64,000 nt of DNA from Psammoneis japonica (taxonomy: Eukaryota). The stretch's first letter is position 1; each line of letters begins with the position of its first letter. Positions 1 through 63,220 of this stretch are shown piece by piece. Location of the stretch: the NCBI GenBank assembly GCA_008632985.1, contig QPGO01000048.1, positions 434,001 through 498,000 of the forward strand, given 5' to 3'. Position numbers and translations under genes: made by a program. Under the pieces are notes generated by a model. It saw only the letters and a list, made by a program, of their open reading frames with translations, had not been told where the DNA came from and did not search any database.

Positions 1-653
1 GTTCTTGGTCAATGTTTTGGTCTTCGCAGCAGTGACGCTCCTCTGTTGGTGCAACGTCACCTTTGGAACCTACAATCGAGGTCCGGACAAAGGGTTTCAG
101 CACACCCAGGTCAAACCAGACGACAACAAGATGCACAAGGTGACTGTGAAAGCGCTTTCTGTTGCCAAGGCACTGCTCAAAGGTGTCAAAGTTTGCGAGA
201 TGCCTGGCAACCCCTTGTGTCCCTTGAAACTGTTCAGAAAGTGTTGGGGATGGTGCCGCCCAGACCAAAAATGTTTCCTGCACCACTGCGCAAGAACAGG
301 TGCAATGACTTGCCACACCAAGTGGCAGAGAAGAAACAAATGGGGAAAACTGCGGTTGGCAATCAAATGAAATGTGCAGCCGAGCTTTGTGGGCTTGAAA
401 ATTGGGAAATGGTGACAAATCATTCAAGCTGAGTGCTCTTGATTGCAGCTTTGGTCTCTGTGAATCTCCACCCAAGAGAGATCGCCAACCGTGTCAGGCA
501 CAAGTCTGCGGAAAGCCAGAATGTCTGCATGCACGAGCATGAGAAGGTTGAGCCATGTGCAGGACGCGATTCGTCCAGCGTCCGTCGCAGCTGCCTCTGC
601 GGTTCAAGAAGTTGATGCTGCAATTCAAGGAGTTGATGCTGTGACAGTGACCT

Positions 654-1253
654 TTGCTGAGGGAGATTCCAGTGGTTCGTCTGCTCCTTCTGAAACAGAG
701 CTGGCGAGTTTGTGCTCTCAGTTTGTGCTCTCGGTGTGATGCCTTGTCGGCTGACAAAAACAATCTTGAGTCCACTGTTCAGGAGCTCAAAGCCACTGTT
801 GGCAATCTTGAGTCCGCCAATGCCATGTTGGTGTCAGAAAAAGACCACTTGGAAAGTGAAAAAGCTGTGCTCCAGGATGGTCTTCAGACAGCCAAACAGA
901 AAATCGAGAAAATGCCTGCAGCTTCCGACTTTGGTTCAATGGATTTTGGTTCAATGGCGGATCATGTTGCTCGTCGTGACAACGCGCTTGAGTTGATGGA
1001 CACCAAGCATTGTGAAGCAAAGAAAGAGAAAATGCAGGTGCTCAACCAGAGCACACAACTCGAGTTGCAGCTTGGAACAATTCAAAGCCATGAGGATGAG
1101 ATCAACTGCCTCAAGGATTCTCTGGCACAGGCAGGTGCCTTGAATCAAAACCTGACCAACAACTTCAGTCAATCTCAGATGCGTGCAGCACAGCTTTCGG
1201 GACGGGTTCATGATTTGCAGGAGCGGAGGAACCGAGTGTGCACAATCATGTAG
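654..1253 (+). pseudogene. Degenerate coiled-coil ORF remnant of unknown origin
   Basis: Heptad-like text (LSADKNNLESTVQELKATVGNLESANAMLVSEKDHLESEK) inside the hypermutated domain; no Tyr; no recognisable domain. Confidence 0.4.
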
Positions 1254-1989
1254 AGTGACTTTCTTTTAGACCAAATGGGGCAGTCTGTTGCAATCACAGT
1301 GAGCCAGCATTGCCAGACTCAATGCACTGCACTCAACACACTGTGCACTTGGCACGATCCTCCAAAAAGTGAGCTGCAGCACATCACTGCGCTCGCACCA
1401 GCCTCATCCAGAACAACCTCATGCACATGTTTGAATGCTCTCGCGTCATGCTTGTTCTGCACAAATTAAAAAGTTTCAATGTTGTCATTCGTTTCGTGAC
1501 ATCATCAGCCGTCATGGTGTGTGTGACACCATCATCTGTCTCGACCAATCAGCGTTCATGGAATCACATGATGATCCCGGCAAAGAACGTCTCAACCAAT
1601 CAACATTCAGGGAATCCAATCCCAGCATCGGAAATCACAGCCGGCGGCTGCACATGATTCTATGACAATTCTGCACTGAGACCCGGTGCGGGTCAGATTC
1701 CAGAAATCTGGAAAATGCCACCTCCGAGCGTCGACCCGGTGTGATTCCGTGGTTTTTTCGGCACAAAGCTCGGCGAAGTCATGCAAACACAGGGATCACA
1801 ACCCACGAATGTGACCGCGCTGCGGAACAAAGAACAGACACTGTCCAATGCAGCACCACCACCTGCCGCACAAAGTCAGGGCACCGCAGGGCGTGGCAAA
1901 CAACACGCAACAACAATGCATGCCGACAACAAAACAACCATCAGCACCACGTTCAAACAGTTGCTTCTTTAGAGACTCTTTACAGAGCT

Positions 1990-4772
1990 GTTGCCAAAAC
2001 AGTCGAGAGCCGTGTGTGTCAACAATTCCATCAGCGACGTGAGCGCATCAACAACTTCCACCAGACAGCTGGGACAAGCTGAAAGCACAGCAAGTGCAGA
2101 CAGATGCGCGTTGCGGTTGCACCAAATTTACAGAGTGTGGAAAGGAAAATTGCCGTTCGAGCAAATGCAGCTAATTGAAATTGAGGAAGACCACCTCGAG
2201 TTTGAAATGCTGTCTTGTGCAAAGTGGTGCTCTTCTGCTCCAATGCCAAAGAATTTTGATGATGACTTGCAACCAACACGCCACAATCAAGATGGGCCTG
2301 CAAAGCTGTTGGTGGCAACCACTCTTTCAAAATGCACCGGAAAGGTCCTGACATTGATCAGAAGACCCAACATTGATTGGAAGACAATGGCCCGACCACC
2401 CTGACTTTGCCAAGTTAAAGGAAAATGAACATCCAAGTTGGTGGACACGGATGAAAAGCCAATTTGAGAGAGAAATTGAGGCACATCACCTGCGACTCGG
2501 CAGTGAGTGTGCTTTTGGTGAATCGACAACGCATTCACTGCATTCAGACAATCAATGCGTTGGCTGTGACGGGGAGATTGCTTTGCCCATCAATGACTTT
2601 ATTTCCATCATTGACCTTCAAACTGTTCTCAAGAAGCTCTTTGAGGATGCAACTCTTGACTGTGGCAATGGAGGCAAGCTGCAACAATGCGCATGGCTTG
2701 CGATTTGTTTCAATGCCGTTGGTCGGGGAGGAGAAATGAAGTTTGTAGACATGGCTGAATGGGTGTGTCATCCAAGGTTTGAAGCCACTGACGTTGGATG
2801 GACTGAGCTCAAAATGAAGGAAAAGCATTCCATGCCAATGGCTCTGGACAAGAGCCGCTGTCTCCAAGATTTCTGCCATGCTGTGGGTTTGTTTTGGTCC
2901 GTTGAGAATGGATTGTTTTGAGTGGGGGAGGACCAGCTTGCAATTCAATCATTCCTCTTTCCAGATCTTCACAGCATCAATGACAATGGGGTGTCGAAGA
3001 AGGTCACCAGTGTCATTCGAGACAATTTGCCGCAGGGCTGCCCGAAAGACATCAAAGATTCATTTTTGACTAAATCAATGCAGAAAGGGAGCATGACGGA
3101 GCTCACGACTCACAAGGCAATGGACGCGTTGGACATTTGCGGTCACTCTGGTCATTCCACTGGCACCAACTTGGACACGTGCACAGACAAAACATTCATT
3201 GTACGAGGGCTTTGTGGAGCAAAGGCCTTGGCATGCTTTCGTGACATTGACGCAGATGCAAGAGTGCCAAGGCTTGAACACTTGGGAGCTCACACGGCTG
3301 CCGCCATTGACGCACTGATGCAGTCTCTCTTTGTTGTGTCTGTCCCGTCTTTCAAGTCTGGCAGATCGCTGCATGTTGTGCTGCGAACTTGCATGGCTTC
3401 CTTGATCATGCACCACACTGCGGTGTCAACCGAATGTTCTCCTGCGAATGCTGTTGCAACAGAACTTCGTATTGTGGCACGAGAAGCAGCTGTTTCTGAT
3501 TCTCGTCATCCAGGTTTGGCTCCCGAATGCATTCTGGACAAGTGGTTGGAAATTGTCATGAACGACTTTCAAGATCACAATCCTGAGATGGCGGAAGCTC
3601 AGCCGGACATGGTGTCCATGGCTGCTGCGATTAACCAACAATTGAGTGTCTTGAATCAAATGCATGCTGAGATGAAGGAGATGCGCAAAGAACAGGAGAG
3701 AGCCAACCTGCATGAATCGGCACAGCTGGAGTGCATTTCTGCACTCGAGAATGAAAACAAAGCCTTTCGACTTGATCTTTTGAGAGCAAATGAGAAGCTG
3801 GCGATCATCAGGACGCCAGAGAGCGCATCAACTGGTGCATCAATGAGCCGAACCAGTGTGTCATTGAGCCGCCCACGACAAGCAATTGGCGCTGATGAAT
3901 GCAACGAAGGCAACAAGAACCCACGCACTGCATTGTGCGCATCTCCCGGGCAAGCGGCAGCTTCGACAATGGAGACCAATGCTGCTGCTGATGCGTCATC
4001 TCAATTGAATGCAGCAACAACAACGGCACCAACTGAGGCAGCTGCTCAATCAACTGAGCAAGCGACTGCCGCTGTGACAGCTCACTCTGATCTGTTGACT
4101 GTGGCTTGTTGACTTCTTGTTCCATCAAGGCCATTGGTGCATGGCGCACAAGCAAAAGCAAGCTCAAGCAAGACAATGGGCAGAGGCATCACTGTCTCAT
4201 TGTTGCTGCAGGATCTACATCGACTCAGACGTTTGAAGAAGAAAAAATGGAAAGATTTGGAAGTTCCAAAGAAATGCACTGAAGCGCAGTGCACAAGGCA
4301 CATGGTCGAGTTGTGCCAGTGCGTGGTGTCCGATGCCGAGAAAGAGGTTCTCAAAGGCAGCAACAGTCTTTTGGACGAGGAGTTCCTCCAGCTTTTAAAT
4401 GACATTGAGGTGCGAGCTCTTGACAAAATGTGGGAATTGGAAGGAAAGGATCCTCATGTTGAACAACAGCTTCAAAAGCACTTGAATCCAAGCCAACAAG
4501 TCAAGGCAACCTGCATTGGATGGGGCAAGTGTGTGAAGATGCACAAAAAAATCTTCAGAAGCATGCAAAATCATCAAAAAACTTCAACAACGAAAAGCTT
4601 CGTCCGCTTCCTGAAGAATCGCCGCCTGGAACTCCCAAAGACAATCGATCGATTGCAAGTGCGTTTCGCACTGCTTCAGTGGCGATGGCTTCCGCACCTG
4701 CTCCCAATGACACAGCTGGTGAGTCACAGTTTCTTGACACCAGGAATTGGTGCTGCACCAGCAGTGACATAA
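1990..4772 (+). mobile_element. Degenerate Crypton-like tyrosine-recombinase transposon ORF
   Basis: YR-like motifs in order: FNAVGRGGE (catalytic R), TELK, TKSMQKGSMTEL (HSxRKG-like), GHSGH...NLDTC (expected ..DTY; TGC at 3180-3182). In-frame TGA at 2919-2921 separates ORFs 2373-2921 and 2922-4112. No RT nearby, so Crypton-like rather than DIRS. Confidence 0.65.
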
Positions 4773-5165
4773 AATGGGCAAGTGGCTTCGTGTCGCACAG
4801 CACGGCGCTCTTGCGCCAACTTTCAGAGCAAATTTGAGCTTGCTGTCATGCCGCCAATGTTTCACCTGTGCAAGCATTCTGATGACACGTGTTTGCTCGT
4901 GAGACACTGCATTTCCAGAGAGCAATGCACCAGAGTGAACATGAACTGGGAACACAGGTTCATGTCACGCCGCGCCTTTGCGCCGGTTGCAACTTCCTTT
5001 GGAAGATGTTGCACCCTCTTGCCACCAGATTCTTCTGTTGTCTCAACAAAAAACACATCTGCAACCTCTCCCTTTTCTTCAATTGCCATGCTGAAATGCT
5101 GGAATCCTGGTGCATGAAAGCTGCTGGTTGTTGCCAACACATTCGCGGCACCGCTGGTGTTGTCA

Positions 5166-5965
5166 TGGAGCTGCAATTTGGCTGCAAATTGGAGCTTGCT
5201 GTCAAACCACAAATGTCACCCACACAAACATTCTGATGACATGCGTGCACTCGTGAGACATTGCATTTCCAGGAAGTGATGCACCAGTGGACAGAAAATG
5301 GGAATGCAGCTTCATGTCGTGCCGCACCCACACGCCATTTGCAGAGCTGCAACTTGGCTGCAAATTGGAGCTTGCTTTCAAACCACAAACATCACTCATG
5401 CAAACATTCTGACAACATGCGTGCACTTGTGAGATGTTGCATTTCCAGGAAGTGATGCACCAGTGGACAGAAAATGGGAGTGCAGCTTCATGTCGTGCTG
5501 CACCTGCGCGCCATTTACAGAACTGCAACTTGGCTGCAAATTGGAGCTTGCCATCAAACCACAAATGTCACCTGTGCAAACATTCTGATGACACACATGC
5601 ACTTGTGAGACATTGTGTTTCCGGGAAGTGATGCACCAGTGGACAGAAAATGGGAGTGCAGCTTCACATCGTGCCGCACCTGCATGCCATTTACAGAGCT
5701 GCAACTTGGCTGCAAATTGGAGCTTGCTGTCAAACCACAAATGTCACCCACACAAACATTCTGGTGACATGCATGCACTCGCAAGACATTTTATTTCCAG
5801 GAAGTGATGCACTGGTGAACAAAAAATGAGAAAGCAGCTTCATGTCGCACCGGCGGCGCACTGTTGGCTCACTTTTCAGAGCAACATTTTTGCTGCAAAT
5901 TGAAGCTTGCTGTCACAACACAAACATCACCTGCACAAGCATTCTGATGACACATGCATGCTCAG
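5166..5965. repeat. 176-bp tandem repeat, about 4.5 copies, plus a diverged copy at about 4820-4990
   Basis: Anchor gctgcaaatt at 5181, 5357, 5533, 5709 (spacing 176) and 5892 (spacing 183). Confidence 0.95.
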
Positions 5966-6689
5966 AAGACATTGCATGACCAGAAAATGATGAACACGAC
6001 ATGGGAAAGCAGCATCACATCGCATCGCTCTCTTGCACCATCGTCGCATCTCTTTGTGCAGTGCACAGTGAGCACCGCAGAGTGTCGCTCAACTCTCAAC
6101 AAGGTTCTTTGACACCGATGTTGGGCTTTTGTGCTGCAGCGCGCTTTCGCAGTCGGCCGGTCGCCGGACGGCCCATTTGCATTGTCGCGGTTGCCACGCT
6201 TTGCGCTGTTGCTGCGCTTTGCACGTTTTTTTTCCGTGGCCCTGTCACGAATTTGCGGCTTTGTGGTTCTTGACCTGGTGCTGGATCGTGCTTTCCGAGT
6301 CGTGATTCCTGCCTGCCGGCGTTGAGCACACTGAGATTCCTGCACAGGATGTGCACAACGGAAACATTTTCACGCACACTTCTACAGGATTGCCGCACTT
6401 CGAAGTGCAAACCAAATGACTGACCAAGACTGCATGGATTCCGAAATTATGGAGCTCGCAGCTCTTCGGTGGCAGTTTTTTTTGTTTTGTGCAGGCCACC
6501 GTGAAGCCTGCAGAGGAATTGGCAGCAATTTTGGAAGTGCCAAGTTCCAACGAATGCTCTGCATGCAAACTCATGGGATTAATTCTACAAAGGTTCACAA
6601 AAATGACAGTGATTGAGAAATTTAGCAATGGTCACAACACAAACAAAATCTCAGAGAATCCATGTTTTTCGATCACAACTGTCATTTGC

Positions 6690-6975
6690 GGCACGATGTG
6701 TTTGTTGTTCACCAAGCCGGGGTGCAGCAACACCCAAGGATGGCTTGCCCTTCCTCTGGCTCTAATTGCTTTCTCTTGTTTGGTGTTCCACAGCATGTTT
6801 TGCTTGCGTGAAGTGTTGTCTCTCTTTTCAACTCGTCGTCTCGCACGATGTGTTGTTGTTTGCCAAGCCGGAATGCCGCAATCGCCAAAGGATGACTCGC
6901 CCTTCCTCTGGATTGAGACCTTGCATTTGTTTGGTGTTCCACAACATGTTTTGTTTGCACGAAGTGTTGTCTCTA
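6690..6975. repeat. Tandem duplication, about 151-bp unit, 2 copies
   Basis: gcacgatgtg..ccaagccgg at about 6691 and 6843; ttggtgttccaca..gaagtgttgtctct at about 6780 and 6931. Confidence 0.8.
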
Positions 6976-7634
6976 GGCGGCGCAGGTGTTGCCAGTTAAG
7001 TCCGGAGGTCGGGGCAAATCGAATGCGTGTCTCCAGCCTTGAGTCCATGTCACTCTTGTGTCTTTGAGCGCAGGAAGTTGCCTGTTTGCTTGACCCGTCA
7101 GGTCATGGCTGTTGAAACAGACAGCAGCGTTCGTCTGCGAAGCAGCAAAAGCTCGCCGAGCAGATCATGCCGTTGACGGAACACAGGTTTGGGGTTCTGT
7201 TGCATCAGTGACATGATGCGGCAAGTCTTCACTCGCAGGGAGTGTTGATTTAGAACGCGGTCGACTCGCAAGTTCTCTTGTTGTCTCCGCAGTGCGCCCC
7301 CTCTTTTTTCTTTTTTTGGGATGGTTTTCCACCCCAAAAACAGGAAAAAGCTTGAGCTCCATCTTCTGATGGTGCTCTTGAGGCAATGTTGTCCTGCGCG
7401 ACTGATTTCTGTCAACTTTTGATGTTGGCATGTTTCAAATGTTTGAAACACGCTTTGAAGCTGTTCCAACAGATGTGGAAAGCCTAAAAGTGCAAGACAG
7501 CAATCTACATTTGCGTGTGAGGCATTCCGCACGTGCATCAATGGACTGCAATGACGGTCGTAGCACCTGCATGCTTTGATGCTGTTGTTTCTGTTTGTGT
7601 GCCACACCGCTCTCTTTCTTTCAGATGCCGTCTC

Positions 7635-7955
7635 TTCACTGTCTGTCATTCCCTTGGGTCCACACTGGGCCATTCATTGCCGCATGCCCCAAGGCTTGTC
7701 GTTGACACCTGTCATGTGGTGGAATTCTGCCGCTGATCGCTTGCATGTCACAAATGGATTCATTGCACCCCAACCTGCAACGACACAACACACCTTCACT
7801 GTCCGTCATTCCCTTGGGTCCACGCTCGGCCATTCGTTGCCGCATGCCCCAAGGCTTGTCATCGACACCTGTCATGTGGTGGACATTCTGCCGCTGATCG
7901 CTTGCATGTCACACGTGGATTCATCGCACCCCAACCTGCAATGATGCAATGTACA
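7635..7955. repeat. Tandem duplication, about 160-bp unit, 2 copies
   Basis: gtc(t/c)gtcattcccttgggtccac...ccccaacctgcaa starts at 7641 and at 7801. Confidence 0.92.
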
Positions 7956-8079
7956 ATGCACATGCCCAAAGGTGCTTTGAGGTGCTGACTGTTCAATGGA
8001 TTAACCCAAGAGGCCATGGGATCAGGTTGTCACATGCCTGGAACTGAGCAGAGGGCTGCTCTTCCACCCTTTTCCCATC

Positions 8080-9150
8080 CTTGCAATGAGCGTTTGCATC
8101 ATTGCCAGTTGGATGGATTACAATCGTGTTGTCAAAGTCTGCCTTGGTCGCTCCCATCTTGACAGCTGCTGCAACACCTTCCATTGCTTCCATGTGCTGC
8201 TGAATCTGTTGCCAAATGAACCCCAACCACCTTGTCAGTCGCTGTCCAAAAGATGTTTTTGACATGGTGCACGTTTCTGACTCTGTGCACAGGAGTTCAG
8301 AGTGCATCATTGGTCGAAATTTGGTCTTGCAGACTGTTGTGTCTTTGAATTTCTCTGCCGCGTCCTCTTCTGCACCTGACAGTTGCAAATTTGGGATTCG
8401 TCAACACGGCAGATGCAACAACAAGTCGGTGTTGACCTCCGAAAAGTGCATCGGCAAGTCGGTGACCCTCCATCGATGCGACAGGCACAAGAGCAATGCG
8501 GCCCATTGCATCACCAACGGTTTGGACACCACTGACATTTGTTTTGAGTTTTCACAGACAGCAACAAAGCTGCCCTTTGTTTCGACTCCGGATGACATGA
8601 GTGCCGTTCAGCGGGATTCCTGTTGGATTGCAGATCAACATTGGTGTTCGTCTGCATCATTTCATCTCGCAGCAGCTCTCGCATGTGCTGATCTAAACCT
8701 CACAAGAACAAGTCTCCACGACACATGAGGGTCACGTCAGCGCCAATTGAGGCCGTTCATCATCTGTGCCAACTCAAGAGCCCACAGTGACGATTGGCTC
8801 TGGCTGTTCCTTTGGGTGAGACATTTCATTGGAAGAAACAGCGTGTTGGACACTGGGAATGTTGGGCTTGTTGGACCAGCCTCCGACCGCGATGACAACA
8901 TTCTTTGCTTTTGAAGTCTGCGACACTATCCGACCACAGTCAGTCAACACATCAACGACTGCATTGTCGGCCCGTTCAAAATGCCAAAGCCTTCGACAGC
9001 TTCAACGCCGGCGTTCTTTAGGACAGCTTGCAAGGGATGAGATCTCACATGTTGTGCTGATGTGTTCAACCAAGTGGAATCACCATCTCTTGCATGTCCC
9101 GCGAGTGCCATTGCGTGGATGCATTTTCTGGACAAACAGCAGAAAAAGTC
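8080..9150 (-). pseudogene. GSR: Glutathione reductase pseudogene (frameshifted, internally deleted, hypermutated)
   Basis: Ordered motifs across frames: VLKNAGVEAVEGFG; AKNVVIAVGGWSNKPNIP..SSNE; LELAQMMNGL..ADVTL; GRIALVPVASMEGHRLADALFGG; TTVCKTKFRPM; AVKMGATKADFDNTIVIHPT. Confidence 0.88.
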
Positions 9151-10159
9151 AGAGCATCCAACGAAATCACGATGAAATGACCACTCCTCGTCTTTGCTCT
9201 CCCTCCTCAACATTGCTGCTGCTGACATCTTCACAACATCCTTTTTGCCCACACAACTGTCAGGCCGTGACGTCACAACTGCTTTCAAAGCCGAGGTCGA
9301 CACAGCTTTCAGGTGCGCCCAAAGGCGAGAAGCACTTGGCTGCGAACTGCAGCAACATTCCATTTGCAGAAAACAACACTTTCGAATGCAGCGATTCGGG
9401 TGCAACTGAGGACTGCAGGAGGGCATCCTTGGAATGTGATGGCAGCAGAGCTTTTACCCCACACTGTCACGACCATTTCTGTCGTGGCTGGCACACTCTT
9501 TCTCCTTCCTCCTGATGCTGATTTTGCAGGTGTTTTCACCCCGTCACCCCTTCGTCATGACCACTGCATGTTGCTCGTCATCTTTGCATGATGATTTCTT
9601 CGAACAAGACGTTTGCTGTGTGCACAAACAGCCAAATGCACTCTTCCAAACAAAACCCAGTGGGTGACAAACCAAAAGAGCGTCATGGTGCATGCATCCA
9701 TTGGCGCGGCGGCTCATTCATTCGCTGTCTGCCCGTTGTCATGTGCAAAATTTCAAAATCGTGTGGACCTGCACATCACCTGTGCTGTGGTTTCTCCCTC
9801 CACTGCTGCGACTGATTCCAGATTCCAAATCTCCAAATTGGCCATGGCATTGGGCTCTGAAGTGGTTGAAGCAGTGAAGCACCACATGATCTCAAAGGCC
9901 GGTGCAGCGGCGGCACGAGCGCTCTCCAATGCTGCAGCATGAGAGCAGCTGCCTGCTGTTTGCCGCACTGCTTGTCCTTTGCATGCTTTTGCGGAAAGTG
10001 TGGTTGCGCTTGTTTCTCATTTGTTGTCTCAAACGACCAGGCGTTAGATCACATGATGCCAAAGATGCACATCTCCCATCATCAAACATCAATGAACACT
10101 TGACTCTCTGCTTGCACGTCAACCGGTGCACTGCTGGCACGGGCTTTTCTGTGCAACAA

Positions 10160-10500
10160 CCTCCTCTGGTCACAGTTGATTCCAGCACAACACTGCTGGC
10201 CAGAAGGACAGTCAATGTGTCCGTCGTGTTGCAAACGGCACCACAGCTGGTTTCCGCATCCTGCCAGTTCACTCCACACCTTGCAACAGGTGTGGGAGGA
10301 GGTCCACTTGATGAGGAGCACTCTTCAGAACCACAAGTCACCAAATGGGCATGGTTGCAGCACTGATTTGTCTCATCAAACAAGAGACCATCAGAGCAAG
10401 AAATGGGTGATCTGACAACCAAACCGTTCTTGCAGTGATGAAACTTGGTGCAGGCATCAATCAACTTGAGTCTGGTTTCTCCACTTTCACAACACATGGT
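10160..10500 (-). pseudogene. Chitin-binding (CBM14/peritrophin-A-like) domain relic plus Cys-rich module
   Basis: C..DACTKFHHCKNG..ISCSDGLLFDETNQCCNHAHLVTC matches CBM14 spacing (expected KFY.C, CNY), followed by RCGVNWQDAETSCGAVC and, after a frameshift, DCPSGQQCCAGINC. Confidence 0.75.
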
Positions 10501-10864
10501 GCCTGGGGAAGCAGCGGCTGCTGGGGGTGGAGAAGGGATCGCGCCAAACGCGCAGACACTTTCCAGGTCCAGGTGGGACCTCGCACTGCTGAACTGTGAC
10601 ATCGACAGTTTTTTGAATTGCATTGCATGTCGCGCACGCAGAATTCTGCATGATTTTGTTGACATTTTGTGTCATTTTGTGGCACACTCATTGAGCGATC
10701 CATCCAACAACTTTTGACATTTTTTGTTGCAGCGCGATTCTACAATGCTGAAAATCATCCGTTGTGTTGCGAATCTTTTGGCGTGATGAAAAACACAGAT
10801 GGCACAACAACAATGACATTGCAGCACTCACACAAGTCTTGCAAGTGTTGCAAAACATTTGTGA

Positions 10865-13800
10865 TTGCACAAATCTGTGCTTTTGGTGGTGAAAGTTCGA
10901 TCGCAAGTTGGGGACCGCGCAAAAATCGTGCAAATGTTGTTTTTGTGCACGATTTGGTTCACGTGCAGCTGGAACACGTCCATTGCAAAGCCTGGTGGAA
11001 AGCGACCAACATTTGACAGGAGCACACCGACGAAGAATGAAGAAGCGCTGCATGTTGTCATTGAAAGTGGTCAAGCCCATGTGGTGAAGATCGCAGCAGA
11101 ACGTCTGTGGAGAGTCGGTGCAAAGAAAAAGATCCCAGGACTTAATCTTCAATTCATTCCCTGTTGCTCCAACTCTGCCATCAAGTGCGCTCTGGACAGC
11201 GTCAAGAAAAATGTCGACAAACTCAAAAAAAGACAACACTTCTTTTGCACGTCTGTCATGGGACAAATTGACAACACCTTCATCGACAATCCGGGTTGCC
11301 GCGTTGACACTCCAGGAGGCAGTGTGACTCTGCGACAACACCCAATGCAGAAAAGAATCCCTGACCCAACCAATCCTGGCAAATTGATCTCGCTCGTGCA
11401 TCACATCAATGTCAAATGGAACAGGAAGTCGGACCATGTCATTGCCTTTCCAAGGAAATCAGTTGACCTTGTGACACAGATTCTGAACAACATGATTCCA
11501 GAATGTCTGCACGTGTGCGGTCCAGCAGCGGAAGCATGGTTCCAAGCGCCAGGCATCACAGTGTACAAGAATGCAGTCTGTGACCCCCGGAAACTGGACT
11601 GATGACCACTGCGGAGAACGGCGCACTTTCAGGCATTGTCAACGAAGATGCCTGGGGCATCGAAGGTCTGTGGGAAGCGGAGCAAGTGGATGAAGCCTCC
11701 ACGGAGCTCAGAGACTCCTCTGAGAATCAGACATCGGACCTGCCGGAAAACAGTCAACAGGATCAGGCCCCGCCGACGGCAGCCAAACAGGCAGCAGCTA
11801 AACTTGCACAGGCTGATGACGTGTCTTCAGTGGGACATCTTTGGAACAAGGACAATGACACACAATGTGCCAAGGCTCAACTTTCCACAACCTTCAACAA
11901 AGACAATCTTGAAGAATTCAAAGAATGTGTGCCAGACGATGACTTGATCAAAGCTGCCTCTTCAACATGGGCAAAACTCGTGCAACTCCAACAAGAAAAC
12001 AAAGCACTTGTTGAAGAAATGCAATGACTTTGAGCAAATCAGGCTCAAGCACCCGGTCCGGCCCCGGCGGAGAGTGCAGCAGACTCTTCCGTGGATGACC
12101 TTCCCAGCTCCCAGGCCGAGGGAGTGGGACAGAACACCTGGGCCACACCGTCCTCAGCAGAACAGTTGACGCCCGCAAGAGGAGGACATTAATTTGGAAA
12201 GCACAAGTCGACAAGCCGATGGGGCATGGGGTGACTCGGCCACCATTGAGAGTCTCAGTGTCACACGTTTTGCATTTCACAATGTCAGCGGTCTTCCCGT
12301 TACGATCTCTGCTGCAGACAAACACAAAGGAACAATTGACTGGATCAAGGATGACAATGTGGATGCAATGGGGATTTCCGAAGTCAATCTAAACTTTTCA
12401 AGAGCAGCGAAACATGAACAATGGAAAGACAGGTGGTGCAATCTTTGGGGGAACAGCTCCACAGTTGCGACAAACAAACACTGCTCTGCGGAAACGAAGT
12501 GCATGTGTGGCGGCGCAGGTCAGGTTCTGACAAGATCAGCAAATCATCGTCTGGTGGACAAGGGTGTGGACCCGACCGGCCTTGGAAGATGGACCTGGGC
12601 TGGAACAAGAGGGAAGTCAGGAATGCATGCAAGAATCATCAATGTCTGCAGACCGGTCAAGGACCATCAAGCCCATCCGGGCAGGGCATGCTCACAACAA
12701 GAAACCTGCTTGCTGCAAAATGATGATGTCAGATGCCCGAGGCAAGCAATGCTTGACAATCTTGGAGGACAAATTAGAGCCTGGCAGGAAAAAGGAGATC
12801 TCATCATTGTGGGAGGAGACTTCAATGAAAATGTGAGAGGCCTGCGATTTGTCAGCTGGTGCAGGAACCTCCATCTGGTGGACGCCATGCAAGAAGCACA
12901 TCCTGACACTGCACCGGTGGCTGCGTGTGACAAGAGTCAATCCAACATTCCCATTGACGCCACTCTGATCTCTCCGGCGCTTGAAGTGACCAAAGCAGGC
13001 ATGACAGGGTTCGGAGAAACGGACTGTCTGTCAGATCATAGAGTGTTGTGGTGGATCGACATTAACAAGCAAAGCACTCTTGGTTGCATGCCACCAAAAC
13101 TGGCGGACACGAAACCTGGTGCACTGGCCAGAAAGCTGCAAGATCCCAAGGTTGTCAGACGCTGTGTCAAACCAGTGGTGAAAGAGATCCAACGGCTGGG
13201 ACTGCTGCGACGAGCAATTAAACTGGAAAATGCTGCATCCTTTGGACTTGAAGAGCAGAGAAGAATGCAAAGAGATGTTTGCCCTCAACCATCAAATTTG
13301 TCTGGATGCCAAAGAAAAATGCAGGAAAATGCACATGAATGAAGTGGAGTCATCCAACACGATTGACAAGGCGAGAAAAGAGACACATCTGTGGTGTTTG
13401 GCATTTGAGCTTCACCACAATCAAAGAGTTGGCGTTGAGACGATCTGCCAACAGATGAAATGCACCTTGATGCACTGACCTTCCGGCCTCACCAAATGCA
13501 GGAACAACACAAGTTGGCCATGAAGCGCTGCCACAAACTCAAATGACAGGCTTCAAAATTACGACAAGATGAGCTCAAGAAGCGTTGTGCTAAGAGGGCA
13601 GAGGAGAATGGAACAACTCAAGTGCAAGAAGAGAAAATGACACAACATGGCTGCCGACAAAAAAGGATGTTTCGACGGATTGAGAGCATCACTGGCAGAC
13701 CAAAAGCAGCCCTGCAGGCCGTCGTTGCCAAAGGAAAGAATGGGAGAGATAGAGAACACCACACAAAATCAGGGATGGAAAGCGTCTGCAATGAAGAAGG

Positions 13801-16800
13801 GCAAGGCAGACACAGCCAAACATCTGCAGGCCCACACGCTGTCCCCTTCATGATGGAGCCATCAGTCAGTGACTTTGGACATGATGCAAACACGTCAAAG
13901 GCAAATCAAGTGCTCAGTGGCACCTGCAATGTCCCTCCTGATGTTGAGGAACATGCTGCAAAGTTTGTCAAACAGCTGAAGAAACCTGAACCTCCGCTTC
14001 CGGACCTGAAGCTAGAATGCATGACAGAGGAACACATCTCCGGTTGGAAGAAGATGAAACCACACACAACTGGCAGCCTGTTTGGTCCGTCTTTTGCTGA
14101 CTGCAAGGCCGGCAGCACTCATCCAGCAACAGCAGAATTCGACGCATGCATGTCAGCCATCCCGATGAAACAAGGACATGCACCAAAGTGCTGGACCAAG
14201 GTGATTGACGTGATGACACCAAAAAAGACGGCGTCGTCCCACGTCAAGAAACTTCGAACAATTGTCCTCTTCGATGCTGTGCGCAACAAGATGAACAAGT
14301 GCTGCGCCCGTGCCCTCGTGAGTCAAGCGGAGACATGCAAACAAATCCCATGGGAGGCATGCGGCAGCAGGAAACGACACTGAGCAATTCTCTGCACCCT
14401 TGACAAGGTCTTGACAGGAGACATGTTCCGGCAAAGCCACAAACCAGGGGCTGTCAATGGCACAGATGCGAAATCATGCTGCAACCGGATGCTTCACTCT
14501 GTTGCTGCACTGTGCATGCAAAGATTTGGCACTGGGGAAGATGAGGTGTTCATGATGACAGGAACATCAACTCAGATGCAACACTGCATCCGGACAGCAT
14601 GTGGGGACTCTGAAGAACCACATGGAGCATTGGAGATTCCACTTCAAGGCATCTTCCAAGGGCACGGCACGGCTCCTGCTGTCTGGCTGGTTGTGAGCAT
14701 TCCTGTCATCAACATGTTGAAGGAAGAAGGATTCGGCATTGAGGCAATGACACCAATTTCCAAACAAGCACGTCATTGCGTGTGCTGCACCCATGTGGAT
14801 GACACTGACCCACCATGCTGTCCCGCAAGTGAAGACGCCACTTGTGAGGATGTGATCTCAAGCATGCAGAAGATGTCAGACTGTTGGGAAGGTGGAGTCA
14901 GGGCAACGGGAGGCGCTCTTGTTCCTGAGAAGAGTCGCTGGTCCCTGGCTTCATTCAAGTGGATCAATGACACATGGAAGCACCAATCCATTGCCAAAAC
15001 TCCTGGCGAAATCACACTTGTGGATCACGAGGGAAAGCACACAACTGTGGACCATCTGGAAGCATCTGAGGCTGGAGAAAGCCTGGGCCTGTGGATTGCC
15101 CTTGATGGCAACTCCAATGCTCAAATGGAAGCTGTGAAAACCAAGGCAGTGAAATGGGCCGACCAAGTTAGATCAGGACATGTCAACAGGATGGAGGCCT
15201 GGTTTTCTCTTGCAGGAGGGATCATGATGAGTCTGGAACACCCACTGGTGGCAATGTCTTCATCAAAAAAAGAGTGTGTTGAAAGTGAGAAGCCACTGCA
15301 TGAGATTGCTTGTGCGCCCCGACACGATGCAATGGACTGGGACTCTCTGAGCTCTTTGTCAGGCAGGGCATCGCTGGAGTGGCAGTCTTCTTGCAACAGA
15401 TTGATTCACTTTCTGTGACAGGGCGGGAAACAAAGCATGTTTGCGAAACAATGGCACTGGAGCTTGGCCACGGGAGCAAGATGTTCTCCTTGGACTGCAA
15501 CACTCTGGCAACCACAACGACGAAAACATGGACCAAGTCTCTGTGGCAGTTTGTTGCTGTTGCCAAATTGATTTGCACTCACCCAAACCTGCAATCAATC
15601 TCACGCGGGAACAGGACACCTTCTTGATGGAGATGTTTGCGGCGTCAGGCCACAAAGGAGCGCATCTTCGGAAAACAAATCTCTGCAGAATGTGGCTGCA
15701 GGCAATCCGCATTTCTGACATTGCTTCTGGAGACGGCTCTAGAATTCTTCCCAAACATTGGCACGGAACCGAAAGATGCAACACAGAATTCCACTGGCCA
15801 AAGGCGGGAGTGCCTTCTCGACCATGCTGGCGACTTTGGCAGGAAGCTTTGACGACATGCTGTCTGGCACCTGGACGCAATGACAAACTTCGACTGTGGC
15901 GGGCACTTGGCAAATGGACCGAAACTCCCAGTGCCAAATGGCGATGCTCGCAACGGGAGGACAGGGTTTTCCACAAGACAGAGGACCAGATTGAACTGTT
16001 CATCAAACTGCTGAACAAATGAAGCAGCCGCAGGAATTGCTTTGTGTTGAATGGACATGTCAAAGATGAGCCAGACGATGCACTGCCAACTGGAGTTCAG
16101 AGAACATTGACGAAGATGATTCCCACAGGAGCTGAACCTGTCTTGCTGCAGGAGCCGGAGAGCTCCATCAACACAGTTGAGTGGCCATGCACTCCACACG
16201 GCTTCCAACCACCGGTTGAGCCATTGCTGCAAGGAATTAAAGATGGCACAGCCATCTGTGTGACTGACGGGTCCTGCAAGGAAGGCCTGGCAATGGCTGG
16301 CATGATTCTGCCACCTCGGCAGGGGCACACACACAGATGCAGGGGTGCAAACCAAACACCAGGAGAAATGCAGGATCTCACTCCATGTGGAGGAGAACTT
16401 GGAGGCACATTCAGTCTGGTGGCACACATTAGAAAGCTCTGCAAACAGCACAACATCACACAAGGAAAGGTGGTGCTCGGCTGCGACTGCGATGTTGGAC
16501 TTCGTGCATGTTTTTACAATGAATGTGACAATCCCACTCTAACCATCTGTGACCTCATTCACCCCATTCAGTCAATGGTTCAAGAACTGCCGACAGTTGT
16601 GGAAGCAGTGGAGGTCGACGGACACAAAGACAAACTCAAGCCTCTTCATGAGTTGTCCTGTGTGGAACAGCTGAGTGTGGAAATGGACTTGCTCGCGAAG
16701 GCCCATTGGGAGGCACTTTGTTCGCATCCTGGTGCTGAGCCACATCAAGCAGCCCAACCTGTCTGGTCGGTTTGACTTTGGGGCAGGACATTGACCTCAT

Positions 16801-17860
16801 GGAGGAAAAATGACGTGCCAGAACATGTGTGTGGCCCGCCAGCAGCAAGTTGTTGGAACAAGAAATTGTCCCTGGAACCAATGAGAGCAAATGTTGATTG
16901 GGATGCAATGGAGCGAGCTGTGAACAGATGCCCTGTGTTTCGAAAACTGTGGCAGCCTTGGTGGAACACTGGCTTTGTTCCAACGAACAACAACCTCTTT
17001 CGGTGGAAGAAACTCGAAAGTCCGGCATGCCCCAGATGTGGTGAGAATGAAGATGGCATTGATCATGTTCTATGATGCAGGGCATGCATGGCTCAAGAGC
17101 TGTGGACAAAGAAGATGTTGAACCTGGACAAGTGGCTTGAGGACCAGCTGACCCACCCCGATCTACGGAGCAGCATTCTTCATTTGCTTCAGGCGTGGCA
17201 TGAAGGACAGCCCTCCCCTGCAATTTCTTCAGAATGCCCTCACACACAGGAGGCTTTTGATGCACAAGAAGAACTGGGAGGTGGCACCCCAGTGCAAGGT
17301 TTTGTAGCAGAAGAATGGGTGGCTGCACAGCAAGCTTGCCGCGCATTTCTTGAACGACGCTGCACAGGCAAACGCTGGGTTTCGGGTCTGATGCAACAAC
17401 TCTGGAACACGGCATGGGACACATGGCACCATAGGATGCAAGCAGCCGAGACAACAACCTCTGAATCAAAACTCACTGTCAACAGCATTCTGGATGACCG
17501 CATCAAAGAACAACGCGGCAGGTTCTTCAGCGAACCTTCCGCAACTTCCCACTGTGCCCGGTGGTTTGCTGGGACAATGGAAGAGGTCCAGGCAGAGGAT
17601 GCAGACTTCAAACAACACTGGCTGGCTGCTGTGGAGGTGGCCATGAAAGCCACGGGGCACATGCCCCACTGTGAATCTCATGAAGAAGATGAACAGCAAC
17701 CAGCGCCCACAACTGAAAGCGCACATTGTGTGTGTTTTGTGAATGACGTTCTGACCCGCCCCACTCCATGGTTGTGGATTGAAAGGGAATGTCAGGCGTG
17801 ACTAAGCCTTAGGCGGTGTAAATTTTACTGTGAGATTGAATTGAAGTGAAGTGAATGAAG
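10865..17860 (+). mobile_element. Near full-length degenerate non-LTR retrotransposon (LINE): ORF1 plus APE-RT-RNaseH-Zn knuckle ORF2
   Basis: APE: FHNVSG, GISEVN, GGDFNE, PIDATLIS, SDHR (about 12270-13045). RT: KLRTIVL, DAKSCCNRM, QGIFQGHG, HVDDTD (14792-14809). RNase H: VTDGSCK, GELGG, GCDC, VDGHKD, EMDLLAK (about 16250-16700). CPRCGENEDGIDHVL*C at about 17030-17080. Many stops and frameshifts. Short (T/G)TGAA-type repeats at 17835-17862 may be the 3' tail. Confidence 0.93.
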
Positions 17861-18310
17861 TGCGGTAATTAGCAGCAAACCAACAACAAATCCAAAATGC
17901 TGGATGGATGCATAGATGCTGTAGATTCGATTACCGTATGTCGCATGTCTGTCTGCCGTCCATCCTGGGCCCAACCCCAGCCAAGGATTTGACCCCAGCA
18001 GACCCCAGCCCATCCCGCCCGCATCCGCACTCCGCACATTTTTTAACTCCAATCGCTCTTCTCAACTCTGGACGGTAGTCTAGCTACCGTAGTACCGTAG
18101 AGAGGAACCTATTGTATGGATATATCTCTTCATCTCATTCATCGGCGTCATCATCATTCATCGCTTCGCCATCATCAAATCCATACCTTCCCGTTCACAT
18201 TTCAAGTAAAGCCAGCAAAGAGGCCAAGTGGCCCGCGAGGCGAGAGAAACGCGCTCAATAATACCCACACGCTCCTACATCCGCGCCATTTGCTTTCTTG
18301 GTGCAGAGAA

Positions 18311-19259
18311 ATGAGAAAATTCCCTGAGAACTGGGCTTGTCTCGCAATGTGGGTTCTGTTTTATTGCCCCAAGAACGCTTCTTCATCTCGATGGACCTCG
18401 TTTGTACCTCTTATGAAACATATGGGAATTTCTTCAAAGAGACTACGCGGCTCAGAACGTCGCACGATTGGGCGCGTCTTTTCCTCAAGTACTCCTCTCT
18501 GCGATACAACTGATTCAGATGAGAGCACCTGGACCAATCATCCAGACCGCCGAGAAGAGAACGAAAAGGCGGAACAACCAAAATCGATTTCGTCAGCATG
18601 TCAACCCACTTTCGCGAAAGTTTCAGCAGCCTACTGTACTTACGTCGGATTGGCCCAACGATGTGTTTGACGACGTTTCTCTTCCACTTCACCTTGACAT
18701 TGGTTGCGGCAAGGGAGGTTTCTTGCTTGACATGGCAACGGCTTCGAGCGACAAAAATTACTTAGGATTGGAGATCCGACCATCTGTTGCCCAACTGGCA
18801 CAGGAACGCGTTACCAAGAGAAAGCAATTGACGGGGCGCTTGTGTTTTGTTGGTTGCAATGCTAATGTTGACCTCGAGAGACTCTTGTCACTCCACAAGG
18901 CAGCGTCAGAAAATGCTGGGCCATTGGATATGGTCTCTATTCAGTTTCCTGACCCACACTTCAAGAGCAGCCACGCAAAGCGTAGGGTGGTCACGCCAGA
19001 ACTTGTCACCTCGTTGGCAACGTTTATGCCCGAGGGCGCCCAAGTATTTCTTCAGAGCGACATCAAGTCGGTTCTAGACGAAATGCGACTACAATTTAGA
19101 ACCAAAGGCGGATACTTCCAAGATGAAATAGTCAATGTGGATGATTACATGGAATCAAACCCGTTGGGCGTCGAAACTGAACGTGAACGAAGCGTCATTG
19201 CAAAGGAGCTCCCAGTGTATCGAACCATGCTACAAAGAACAACCATTCCAGTGGAATGA
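18311..19259 (+). CDS. trmB: tRNA (guanine-N7)-methyltransferase, TrmB type, probably organelle-targeted; apparent 1-nt frameshift near 18530
   Basis: RFRQHVNPL, LDIGCGKGGFL, YLGLEIR, IQFPDPHFK..H.KRRVV, QSD, TERE motifs. The start is inferred from the upstream frame. Confidence 0.88.
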
Positions 19260-19323
19260 GACAATTGACAATTCTAAACTCTTCTAGCATTCGTTGCTCA
19301 AAAATCAACATTCAAATCTCCAT

Positions 19324-20529
19324 CTACAACAATACTTTTGACAGGCCCAAAGCGTGTCCAACCAAAATCGCCTGAGGGACTCTTTTGTGTTTGTTACATG
19401 AGCTTAATAAACAAATACCATGAATCGTGGGCTCGCCATCCAGTTGGACTTGAGAAACTGGATAGAGATCAACAGTTTCGGTCGATCTTCTCACGGCCGA
19501 CACGCGTCGAAGGGACCCGTCCGACGTTCCGAGGATCACTTCTGCAGAGACACCAAGATCGCTAACGCAAGCCAAAGCTGTGACTCGCAAAGGTTCTCCA
19601 GACACACCATCAATAACCAATGTTGCCGCAGGTGCCAAGGAGAATGGGTTGCCTTCTTTACTTAAGGCTCTGCATTGAAGTGTCCCGTCAACTCCAACCG
19701 AGAACAAGAATCCACCTTTGAATCCCACAACTAATCCAGTTACCCTTCCGTTGTGCGCCGCGATAGTCTGTTGTGGATTTTCAACCGTCACATCTCCAGA
19801 CCAGCAGTGAATGCGTCCGTCCACTCCACCTGCGTACGTACAGTCTGATTCTTCGTTTCTACAGAGGCACGACAAGTCACTCGACAAAGTCGAGCCCAGT
19901 TCAGGGCATGAGCTAATGGATCTCTTGGTTGCATGTCTCCACTTAGGAATTTTGTCATCATCGTGAAACCGCTCCCAGGTTTCGACGCAGTTGCAACCAA
20001 TACTGTGAACCAGATTGCGAGTCCTGTCGTAAGTAACGTCTTTTACCCAACCCGTGTGCGGTCCAAGATTCTGAGAGAATTGAGTTCCTTCGTCCGAAAG
20101 ATCCCATACAGAAACGAAACGATTGCCTCCTCCGCACATGAGTTGCGCTGTATCGAACCTATCATCACTCTGGAAGGTCGTCATGGAATAAACGGGCAAT
20201 GAAGTTGCTGAAGGATCGCGTAGTTCTCTGACAAGTTCAAACGATTCTTCGTTGTTATCGGATTTGACATACTCTTGGACGCTTCCTCGTTTTGTTCCAA
20301 CATAGAAAAAGTGGAGATGTCGTCCCTTGGGAGAGAATCGATGCAACGAAGTCACTCCCTCCCGATGGACATGGCATATGCTACCGGCGGTTGAGATGGT
20401 AAGGGCGACCACAGCATCGTGCCCAACTAAAAAAGCTGCGGATGCGACGAGACACTGAAGGCGCCACCTAGATGTTTTCAAATAATGATTGCGTCGAGAT
20501 GAGCAACACGGTGCAGATTCTCCGATCAT
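19324..20529 (-). CDS. WD40-repeat protein with N-terminal signal-like segment
   Basis: About 400-aa ORF with GGGNRFVSVWD, GPHTGWVKDV, GGVDGRIHCW, AAHNGRVTGL..FSVGVDGTL. Confidence 0.8.
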   Translation of the reverse strand: MIGESAPCCSSRRNHYLKTSRWRLQCLVASAAFLVGHDAVVALTISTAGSICHVHREGVTSLHRFSPKGRHLHFFYVGTKRGSVQEYVKSDNNEESFELVRELRDPSATSLPVYSMTTFQSDDRFDTAQLMCGGGNRFVSVWDLSDEGTQFSQNLGPHTGWVKDVTYDRTRNLVHSIGCNCVETWERFHDDDKIPKWRHATKRSISSCPELGSTLSSDLSCLCRNEESDCTYAGGVDGRIHCWSGDVTVENPQQTIAAHNGRVTGLVVGFKGGFLFSVGVDGTLQCRALSKEGNPFSLAPAATLVIDGVSGEPLRVTALACVSDLGVSAEVILGTSDGSLRRVSAVRRSTETVDLYPVSQVQLDGEPTIHGICLLSSCNKHKRVPQAILVGHALGLSKVLL

Positions 20530-29837: not shown

Positions 29838-30466
29838 TTAGCTTTCCATACCCTTGCTCAACGAAATCACCTCGTCAACTTCGATATGCTATGGCGCAAG
29901 ATAAACAATGTGAGATTGGAAAACGGAGTTCAGTCTTTCTTATTACAATAGCGCACCGTCGCTATTCTTACCGACAATTCACCCGCAAAATCATTTTCTT
30001 CGGTAAGGAAAAGCATGCAGTGACATTCATGTCGCTCTCTCATAGGGACGCACGGGCAATTCCAGTAGCCATCCTTTGCTTCCTTTTCTTTGTCTTCATA
30101 AAAGCGACATGGGCACAGCGGAGCCCCCAAAGATACCTTGTGCTCTGCCAGCCCTTTAATTACGACGGCGGGGATGGACAAGTCAGAACACAATTTCGTG
30201 CTCGAAATCTCCAGATACTTGTTAGAGAAAGCAGTCATGGCTTTTGTAGCTTTCTCTAATGCAACATCTCTTTCCTCGTTCGTCATACCATCATCGTTCG
30301 ACGACATTCTCAATCGATTCCGTCTAGATGCTACTATCGACATTTCTCTCCTCGACAGAGTCCATGCAGGAGCAAAAGCATTCGCGCCGGTACCGTAAAG
30401 GAAGATCTGTGCAAAAAGAGCTGCAGATATCGTTCGAAGACGAATCATACTGCGTCGTAAATACAT
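29838..30466 (-). CDS. ftrB: Ferredoxin-thioredoxin reductase catalytic subunit, plastid-targeted
   Basis: CPCR..WNCPCVPMRERHECHCMLFL Fe-S/active-site motifs; ANAFAP leader; intron 29889-29971; last exon HIEVDEVISLSKGMES*. Confidence 0.95.
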
Positions 30467-54807: not shown

Positions 54808-54833
54808 GGGGGGGGGGGNGGGGGGGGGGGGGG
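54808..54833. repeat. Poly-G tract containing an N
   Basis: About 26-nt G run with n at 54819. Confidence 0.85.

Positions 54834-63187: not shown

Positions 63188-63220
<33 letters not shown>

Follow-up and report, generated by a model that had tools for sequence, protein, structure and literature searches.

In a 64-kb stretch of the genome of Psammoneis japonica (64,000 nucleotides; contig QPGO01000048.1, positions 434,001 to 498,000; "the window" below, with coordinates counted from its first letter), three blocks of DNA have been stripped of the dinucleotide TpA (TA). The blocks make up about 24 kb and the DNA flanking them is normal, as a first-pass annotation of the sequence had claimed. 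On balance we lean towards the following account, taken whole and with its chemistry included: the blocks consist of mobile and repeated DNA that has been silenced in the nuclear genome of a diatom, and within them a local process has turned nearly all TpA into TpG or CpA. The parts of this account differ in strength. A directional signature from TpA to TpG and CpA, restricted to the blocks, is very probably genuine, and it was probably left by a targeted process acting in place at the level of DNA. The proposed chemistry, in which an ADAT/TadA-type deaminase would convert adenine in DNA to hypoxanthine, is put forward tentatively.

Block 1 occupies positions 1 to 17801 and extends past the left end of the window. 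Its observed/expected (o/e) ratio is 0.06 for TA and about 0.5 for CG, and its rho for TG+CA is 1.67. Block 2 (54600 to 59710; o/e of 0.05 for TA and 0.05-0.10 for CG) and block 3 (62770 to 64000, extending past the right end of the window; 0.06-0.08 for TA and 0.10 for CG) are depleted of both dinucleotides. Measured in 1-kb intervals, the TpA ratio is 0.02-0.13 in the 17 intervals spanning 1-17000, 0.00-0.09 in the four spanning 55001-59000 and 0.08 in 63001-64000. Outside the blocks it is mostly 0.33-0.96, and the three intervals that straddle an edge have values of 0.25, 0.47 and 0.37. TG and CA have o/e ratios of 1.4-2.3 inside the blocks, and the GC content is about 0.5 throughout the window. 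The pooled blocks (23,872 bp) contain 87 TA, or 3.6 per kb, as against 1555 TA, or 40.0 per kb, in 38,852 bp of normal DNA (Poisson P ~1e-288); 67 TA lie within 1-17800. Relative to normal DNA, only TA (0.06), CG (0.46) and TG/CA (1.7) are displaced in the blocks, the remaining 12 dinucleotides being found at 0.79-1.24.

The change is one of A:T to G:C at the pair whose A follows T, and it ends within tens of bases of the block edges. At the right side of block 1 the last of the sparse TA stands at 17432, and the next ones are at 17803, 17810, 17819 and 17826. The edge itself (17799 to 17803, plus strand) contains the TGA that closes the frame of the long interspersed nuclear element (LINE) described below, with normal TA density from 17803 onwards. 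The transition is completed in less than 10 bp at 17.8 kb and in up to about 270 bp at the other edges. The densities of TA and CG shift jointly at about 54.6 kb and again at 62.78 kb, there within about 30 bp. Where block 2 ends on the right, the segment 59596-59710 has 10 CG and no TA, CpG recovering about 115 bp before TpA. A single N at 54819, at the left edge of the same block, is the sole ambiguous base of the window.

The depletion is equally visible in codons. Three transposable element (TE) frames contain one Tyr in 2277 codons, as against 1.9% in the 6174 codons of 13 flanking open reading frames (ORFs), and 4.3% Cys as against 1.9%. The stop triplets TAA and TAG are nearly gone from the blocks (34 and 24, beside 544 TGA), and spurious ORFs are consequently long.

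The direction of the change was established on the element at 12170 to 17801 (plus strand). Judged from its sequence, this element is a LINE, with an endonuclease and a reverse transcriptase (RT) in one long frame of about 1,880 codons, which is interrupted by one +1 frame change near 15405-15415 and by 10 in-frame stops and has a single Tyr. An apurinic-type endonuclease domain (12170 to 13339; Pfam Exo_endo_phos, E 4e-6, passing the curated cut-off), an RT core (14384 to 15415) and a zinc-binding domain, zf-RVT (16776 to 17072; E 2e-4, under the curated cut-off), lie in this order on the plus strand. The RT of the window element is itself under the Pfam threshold; its homologues carry PF00078 (RVT_1). 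Its active-site box reads HVDD where the relatives have F/YVDD (alignment consensus 'YTFVDDTD'). The 12 homologues have 43-47% identity to the RT part. Seven of them are 1,873-1,898 amino acids (aa) long and the window frame is colinear with these, so that it is a full-length, though dead, copy.

A column was considered conserved if it had the same residue in at least 70% of the 12 homologues. Tyr is kept at none of the 28 columns where it is conserved; the window element has 11 Cys (TGY), 6 His (CAY), 2 Arg (CGC), 3 Phe and 6 other residues there. An independent mapping of the same columns with tblastn gave 0 Tyr, 13 Cys and 5 His. Other conserved residues are largely retained (38 of 43 Trp columns, 14 of 18 Cys columns and 59 of 73 Gly columns are intact), and the loss of Tyr is significant when compared with the retention of Phe (Fisher P = 3e-5) or of Trp (5e-15). 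Tyr makes up 2.4-3.3% of the homologues and Cys about 2%, whereas the window frame has a single Tyr among its 1,881 codons and a Cys content of 4-5%. The earlier statement that conserved Tyr codons have come to read TGY or CAY is thus confirmed (11-13 Cys and 5-6 His of 28 columns), and these outcomes support the proposal made with it, namely a strand-symmetric, TpA-specific A:T to G:C process confined to TE and repeat blocks. Both strands were altered, the Cys codons recording A to G on the sense strand and the His codons T to C. For the LINE, the aligned codons point unambiguously to A:T to G:C at TpA.

The LINE frame extends about 33 codons beyond the end of homologue P0127, where it reads CAG CAA; this would be consistent with, although not provable as, a mutated TAG/TAA that was the original stop. 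The triplet CGC at 14936 and 17514 (2 of the 28 Tyr columns), together with CG in 5 of 77 cells of a tandem array described below, corresponds to about 1 in 10 ancestral TA with both bases changed. Either both strands were altered before replication or a second transition came later, and such cases would make new CpG in the blocks.

The LINE family as such is not TA-free. Of 138 related loci in metagenome contigs, the 80 most similar to an intact protein were collected, a sample that leans to intact copies; all 80 show ordinary TpA, with o/e ratios of 0.35-0.89. Contigs built from the sequencing reads (run X1, about 37x word depth) reproduce the window with 0 differences over the matched stretches 2503-5207, 5734-6625, 7343-7857, 7960-10377 and 10951-16877, the longest of which measures 5,927 bases. 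The first-pass annotation had named three observations that would speak against it: intact elements that are themselves free of TA and Tyr, raw reads with TA at the altered sites, and copies that show no excess of TA to TG or CA over their consensus. None of these was found. The first two were examined directly, on the relatives with their TA ratios of 0.35-0.89 and 2.4-3.3% Tyr and on the read-built contigs, and the third only indirectly.

Read contigs with at least 80% likeness cover the 5.6 kb of the LINE at 40-56x, like single-copy genes. The term "repeat-targeted", under which the signature was initially described, therefore goes too far, as dependence on homology is not shown. A diverged read contig has TG at 2416-2417, where the window retains TA, and TG/CA swaps at 245/246, 261/262 and 434/435. 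Contigs that match block 1 exactly have a word depth of about 35-40, the gene region 17959-20000 has about 56, and diverged contigs have about 44 over 1-500. Block 1 may be heterozygous or haplotype-specific, given the lower exact-match depth and the presence of diverged contigs of similar depth.

The fate of the lost dinucleotides was followed by two mass balances. Compared with the window's own genes, the blocks have 36 TA and 30 CG per kb less and 73 TG+CA per kb more. The second reference consisted of the ORFs of 30 near-full-length loci among the 80 relatives. From these to the window LINE, TA falls from 43.0 to 3.7 per kb and CG from 57.8 to 30.7, while TG rises from 54.7 to 101.0 and CA from 87.0 to 105.5 (TG+CA from 141.7 to 206.5). 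The combined loss of TA and CG (66.4) balances the gain of TG+CA (64.9), showing that both drain to TG/CA. Part of the excess of TG and CA thus comes from a separate decay of CpG, which the first-pass annotation had not split off.

The loss of TA is separable from the decay of CpG. In block 1 TA is exhausted and CpG only halved, whereas blocks 2 and 3 have lost both. A direct-repeat pair of about 150 bp (7634 to 7944; start-to-start spacing 160 bp, 92.7% identical) has 10 differing positions, 7 of which are CG in one copy and TG or CA in the other and none of which is a TG/CA swap. A related LINE from an environmental sample, described below, has lost TA and kept CG. Diatom TEs carry 5-methylcytosine (5mC) (PMC9998398), and the CpG depletion in the blocks would be the ordinary decay expected from it. 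If the blocks are at equilibrium, the presence of 3.6 TA per kb beside 215 TG+CA per kb gives, as a rough estimate, a TpA-specific rate at least about 60 times that of the reverse transition.

Neighbouring sites were resolved one by one, without runs on a single strand. This was seen in a 176-bp tandem array (4828 to 5961; 4.5 units and one diverged unit), in which 14 columns are polymorphic for TG and CA among the units. Over six units these columns have 40 TG, 31 CA, 5 CG and 1 TA, and of 65 pairs of adjacent outcomes 32 are alike (shuffle p = 0.52). The TG/CA swaps of the array do not by themselves prove that TA mutated in place, since the ancestor could have been CG. The array shows change after amplification on both strands of a symmetric step, and not TA ancestry.

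The altered A:T pair is the one whose A precedes a pyrimidine (Y): T-A-Y, or R-T-A on the other strand, where R is a purine. Both the pattern of surviving TA and the outcomes at Tyr codons fit this rule. Relative to normal density, survival is 0.27 for YTAR, 0.10 for YTAY, 0.041 for RTAR and 0.017 for RTAY, and YTAR accounts for 48 of the 87 survivors as against 288 of 1555 TA in normal DNA (P = 2e-13). Ancestral Tyr codons that follow a pyrimidine gave 9 Cys and 1 His, and those that follow a purine 3 Cys and 5 His (P = 0.043). A mild strand asymmetry is present among the survivors, with 24 YTAY as against 10 of its reverse complement RTAR; normal DNA has 392 and 395. On the sense strand of the LINE, TG has gained 46 per kb and CA 18 per kb relative to the 30 relatives, where the context predicts a share of 0.53-0.58. 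An attempt to divide TA to TG from TA to CA by base composition did not close (G +40-42 per kb, A only -2 to -11 per kb).

Block 1 is a composite of the LINE, a multi-copy ORF family, tandem arrays, high-copy repeats and gene relics. The multi-copy family is represented by an ORF at 2922 to 4109 (plus strand) with 0 Tyr in 396 codons. Its four homologues, one of which is a cluster of 54 members, have 49-61% identity and carry 1.8-3.1% Tyr, and the conserved Tyr of their 'GHS..LD.Y' motif is Cys (TGC at 3180) in the window. This motif, spotted by eye, is the only hint of a tyrosine recombinase; the identity of the element as a Crypton is not confirmed. The Crypton label given in the first-pass annotation found no support in Pfam, which matches neither the ORF nor its four homologues, in a profile search of the ORF against PDB sequences, which was also empty, or in an AlphaFold model, which has a predicted local distance difference test (pLDDT) score of 31.

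Two gene relics lie on the minus strand of block 1. The first is the C-terminal dimerisation domain of a glutathione reductase (7996 to 8400; Pyr_redox_dim, E 1e-6), which matches chains of human glutathione reductase at E 7e-10. The second is an ORF with a chitin-binding peritrophin-A domain (9895 to 10671; CBM_14, E 1.2e-6, passing the curated cut-off). A 151-bp tandem pair (6691 to 6974) lies within a high-copy repeat region, the summed depth of read contigs being 700-6,600 at 6004-8004 and 30,000-36,000 at 10006-11339, as against about 40 nearby. A very high-copy short repeat occupies 10561 to 10980 (summed contig depth 30,000-36,000). Many read contigs diverge at precisely these two positions, which defines a high-copy segment of about 420 bp. 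A scan of 1-18000 against Rfam gave 0 matches at E <= 0.01, and the very deep segment at 10.5-11 kb thus corresponds to no known RNA gene. Blocks 2 and 3 have no Pfam match and nothing recognisable, and the longest ORF of block 2 (56897-57814, minus strand) has only two weak partial matches among 1.84 billion representatives. The assertion that all recognisable block content is dead TEs, repeats or gene relics accordingly stands for block 1, with its LINE, tandem arrays and glutathione-reductase and CBM_14 relics, there being no recognisable content in blocks 2 and 3.

The ordinary genes of the window have long ORFs and few introns, and include Utp14 (49640-51781), an HflX-type GTPase (47491-49404) and WD40 proteins. 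The best named relatives of Utp14, with 45-56% identity, are all from diatoms (Phaeodactylum, Nitzschia, Seminavis, Epithemia, Pseudo-nitzschia and Thalassiosira), and the window is therefore diatom nuclear DNA; the top unnamed match has 60% identity. Three further long ORFs in the region of normal TA, at 21843-23348, 33114-35078 and 23836-25005 (501, 654 and 389 aa), match no Pfam family at E <= 0.01.

One of the 80 related LINE loci shows the signature in partial form, namely L065, a 1,927-bp environmental sequence with the lowest TA ratio of the set (0.35) and a CG ratio of 0.96. At 12 conserved Tyr columns it has 1 Tyr, 4 Cys, 2 His and 5 Phe. It alone has lost the conserved Tyr, none of the other 79 loci having more than 2 Cys at such columns. 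There is no blastn match between L065 and the window LINE. A reference was made from the consensus of its five nearest relatives (5 of the 79, 60-68% identical), a site being accepted if at least 4 of the 5 have TA. At the 15 consensus TA sites, L065 has 6 TG, 3 CA, 2 TA and 4 others, whereas control lineages retain 9 of 12 and 11 of 16 (P = 0.004). Change of A to G was seen at 6 of 15 A that follow T and at 14 of 148 that follow A, C or G (P = 0.004). From these small numbers, L065 looks like a partly edited LINE copy in another organism.

The closest known counterpart has been described in Bigelowiella natans. In a mutation-accumulation experiment, the mutation rate of integrated giant-virus and virophage regions of this alga was about 6e-7 per site and generation (Mettrop et al., bioRxiv 2026, 10.64898/2026.01.13.699255). 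Of the changes, 210 of 211 and 20 of 20 were A to G or T to C, all at TpA, the local rate being raised about 1000-fold and the process confined to foreign DNA. In the Bigelowiella genome, RT, endonuclease-RT and DDE domains are over-represented in clusters of 1-kb windows that are poor in TpA and rich in CpA+TpG. The authors suggest that an ADAT2-like deaminase acts on adenine in DNA, and cite reports that ADAT2 homologues edit DNA (10.64898/2026.01.13.699255). With this preprint, the earlier remark that no description of such a process was known has been overtaken.

The likeness to the present blocks lies in the change of A:T to G:C at TpA, giving TpG and CpA on both strands, and the process would be of the same kind in both organisms. 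The cluster definition used for Bigelowiella, applied here, picks out 24 of the 64 1-kb intervals, all of them within or straddling the blocks: a run of 18 (1-18000), a run of 5 (55001-60000) and the interval 63001-64000 at the end of the window. The differences are that Bigelowiella is a rhizarian whose targets are nucleocytoplasmic large DNA virus (NCLDV) and virophage DNA, whereas P. japonica is a stramenopile in which a LINE, a multi-copy ORF family, arrays and gene relics are affected. The depletion is near saturation here (rho 0.05-0.06), as against 0.45 in the Bigelowiella NCLDV region. Coupled CpG decay and a T-A-Y preference are seen here, and the text of the preprint treats neither CpG, nor diatoms, nor context beyond the dinucleotide. 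In the literature searched, the signature is not reported for diatoms or other stramenopiles; the Bigelowiella supplements, which were outside the search, could hold context data.

Repeat-induced point mutation (RIP) of ascomycete fungi is alike in producing dinucleotide-specific transitions on both strands of mobile and repeated DNA, with sharp edges and killed reading frames. However, RIP changes C to T at CpA and makes TpA, whereas in the blocks TpA is destroyed, CpA and TpG are made and the GC content is not lowered. Sequences are regarded as affected by RIP when TpA/ApT is above about 0.89 and (CpA+TpG)/(ApC+GpT) below about 1.03. These indices are inverted here, at 0.06-0.08 and 1.77-2.18. 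Decay of CpG, as 5mC would drive it, affects the same blocks, yields the same TG and CA and shares its edges with those of the TA loss, but cannot remove TpA and is separable from its loss. ADAT2/3 (Tad2/Tad3) and ADAR likewise cause A to be read as G with U or T directly 5' of it, and ADAT2/3-mediated editing of fungal mRNA favours U at position -1 (PMC11156358, PMC11087585). These enzymes act on RNA and their products are not inherited, whereas the changes described here are in genomic DNA, on both strands and in sequence of a non-transcribed type. In dinoflagellates, 5-hydroxymethyluracil (5hmU) is a TE-directed base modification in a lineage of the stramenopile-alveolate-rhizarian (SAR) group, with a preference for the T of TpA (PMC11572971). 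It differs in being an epigenetic mark, for which the text available reports no mutational footprint, and in preferring TpC as well (PMC11572971); TpC is not depleted in the blocks.

In the account that we favour, the silenced state of a block would direct the process, and editing would take place on the DNA itself, cumulatively, on either strand and site by site. That it acts in place rather than on each element is suggested by the arrays, gene relics and spacer across 17.8 kb, which are equally TA-free, and by the sharp, coinciding edges. Hypoxanthine pairs with C, so that a deaminated A would be read as G, and the natural and fungal mRNA substrates of ADAT/TadA-type enzymes, which have U directly 5' of the edited A, would be in keeping with the TpA target. 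Ordinary decay of CpG runs in these blocks too, with a pace of its own, and adds to the same pool of TG and CA. The process would serve, or result from, genome defence.

Other causes of the signature have been considered. GC-biased gene conversion and a general AT to GC bias were rejected on the dinucleotide specificity, AT, AA and TT being unchanged, and an origin from ultraviolet (UV) light was rejected since UV photoproducts at TpA would not be confined to blocks. An intrinsic composition, in which the element families or a foreign donor DNA were simply TA-free, is next to impossible in view of the relatives with normal TA and Tyr, the conserved catalytic and structural Tyr that are now Cys or His in dead frames, and the host-type gene relics that are affected too. 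It is extremely unlikely that a modification of TpA in heterochromatin made a long-read basecaller report TA as TG or CA, with the error surviving in the assembly. Such a modification, if restricted to domains, would yield an artefact restricted to the same domains, and the sequencing runs come from one sample, probably the assembly's own, with no library type on record. However, k-mer contigs at about 37x that match up to 5,927 bases with 0 differences are not to be had from noisy reads. The blocks also bear frameshifts, in-frame stops and CpG decay, the unrelated metagenome contig L065 shows a partial signature, and the signature in Bigelowiella comes, as we understand it, from short-read mutation-accumulation data (10.64898/2026.01.13.699255). 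Editing before integration, in which TE transcripts or cDNA would be A-to-I edited by an ADAR/ADAT-like enzyme or a first-strand cDNA deaminase and then inserted, the edges being TE ends, agrees with the coincidence of the right edge of block 1 with the 3' end of the LINE, with the larger gain of TG than of CA on its sense strand, as RNA-level A to G predicts, and with the preference of ADAR and fungal ADAT for U at -1 (10.64898/2026.01.13.699255; PMC11156358). We nevertheless consider it very unlikely. Editing of RNA followed by retrotransposition should give A to G on the sense strand only and in retroelements only, which is not what is seen: both strands are altered (11-13 Cys as against 5-6 His), and the arrays, the glutathione-reductase and CBM_14 relics and the spacer of the 17.8-kb block are as free of TA as the LINE. 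A saturating loss (0 of 28 Tyr kept) can hardly be reached in a single cycle of retrotransposition when editing kills the element, and the Bigelowiella mutations arose in integrated DNA in the course of mutation accumulation (10.64898/2026.01.13.699255).

Two further alternatives retain an in-place process and differ in its trigger or its chemistry. The same chemistry might be started, as in RIP, when duplicated sequences pair by homology, perhaps at the sexual cycle, and not by chromatin state. The edges that are sharp to tens of bases, the affected tandem arrays and the high repetition of parts of block 1 (summed depth 700-36,000 at 6-8 kb and 10-11.3 kb) would suit such a trigger. It appears quite unlikely in the face of a LINE at single-copy depth (40-56x at a likeness of at least 80%), when independent TG/CA resolution of about 40 TA per kb would make copies diverge by only about 4%, of an affected host-type gene relic, and of Bigelowiella targets that are two single viral insertions (10.64898/2026.01.13.699255). 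A targeted in-place process could also act on thymine: a TET/JBP-type dioxygenase would modify the T of TpA to 5hmU or 5-formyluracil (5fU) on silenced TEs, and mispairing with G would give T to C, that is, TpA to CpA on one strand and TpA to TpG on the other. A TET/JBP homologue of dinoflagellates makes 5hmU, which is enriched on TEs and silences them, T in TA and TC being preferred (PMC11572971), and the SAR group includes dinoflagellates as well as diatoms and chlorarachniophytes (PMC9998398). The outcome would be strand-symmetric and site by site, as observed, and the R-T-A form of the context rule fits equally well. On the other side, the literature examined reports no 5hmU in diatoms, 5hmU or 5fU would have to mispair often enough, and TC is not depleted here (o/e 1.00 as against 1.15), unlike what the dinoflagellate preference for both TA and TC would predict. 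Oxidation of thymine is thus a serious alternative, if an unlikely one.

Several points weigh against adenine deamination in place on silenced mobile DNA. An alteration of A and one of the paired T cannot be distinguished from the sequence, and the LINE, taken alone, could have been edited before its integration. The larger gain of TG than of CA in the LINE may be a strand or transcription bias. Host-type gene relics lie in block 1 beside the LINE, the repeats and the multi-copy ORF family, and for blocks 2 and 3, which have no identifiable content, mobile DNA is assumed. The columns of the tandem array may descend from CG as well as from TA, 5 of the 14 keeping CG and 1 keeping TA in some unit. 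The context rule comes from 87 surviving sites and 18 polarised codons, and biased regeneration of TA could have added to the survivor pattern. The evidence for this species comes from one 64-kb window, and the sequencing runs, being from a single sample that is probably the assembly's own, exclude polishing error but do not represent an independent individual.

Targeted hypermutation of mobile DNA has been known as C to T editing, by RIP and APOBEC. Its counterpart, A:T to G:C at TpA only, appears to have been reported once, in 2026, in one chlorarachniophyte and, in the text available, with no known enzyme. The saturated footprint in a diatom brings the phenomenon, until now a peculiarity of a single alga, closer to a defence or mutational mechanism widespread among eukaryotes, and places it in a group of organisms that has genetic tools and great ecological weight. 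New here are the preference for T-A-pyrimidine, which constrains the candidate enzymes, the lack of strand coordination between neighbouring sites, the separability of TA loss from CpG decay, and the partial signature in L065. Blocks of this kind are GC-neutral and are therefore missed by RIP-type detectors, and as only TGA stops remain, they contain long spurious ORFs and TE families that are hard to recognise. It is conceivable, though somewhat doubtful, that the process belongs to a genome-defence system conserved in the SAR supergroup, which would recognise silenced mobile and viral DNA and edit A:T pairs in T-A-Y duplex until no TpA, Tyr codon, TAA or TAG is left. Such a system would be independent of cytosine methylation and perhaps kin to the TpA-directed thymine modification of dinoflagellates, and the partly edited L065 hints that it would be active in environmental populations. 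If so, it would be the functional mirror image of fungal RIP.

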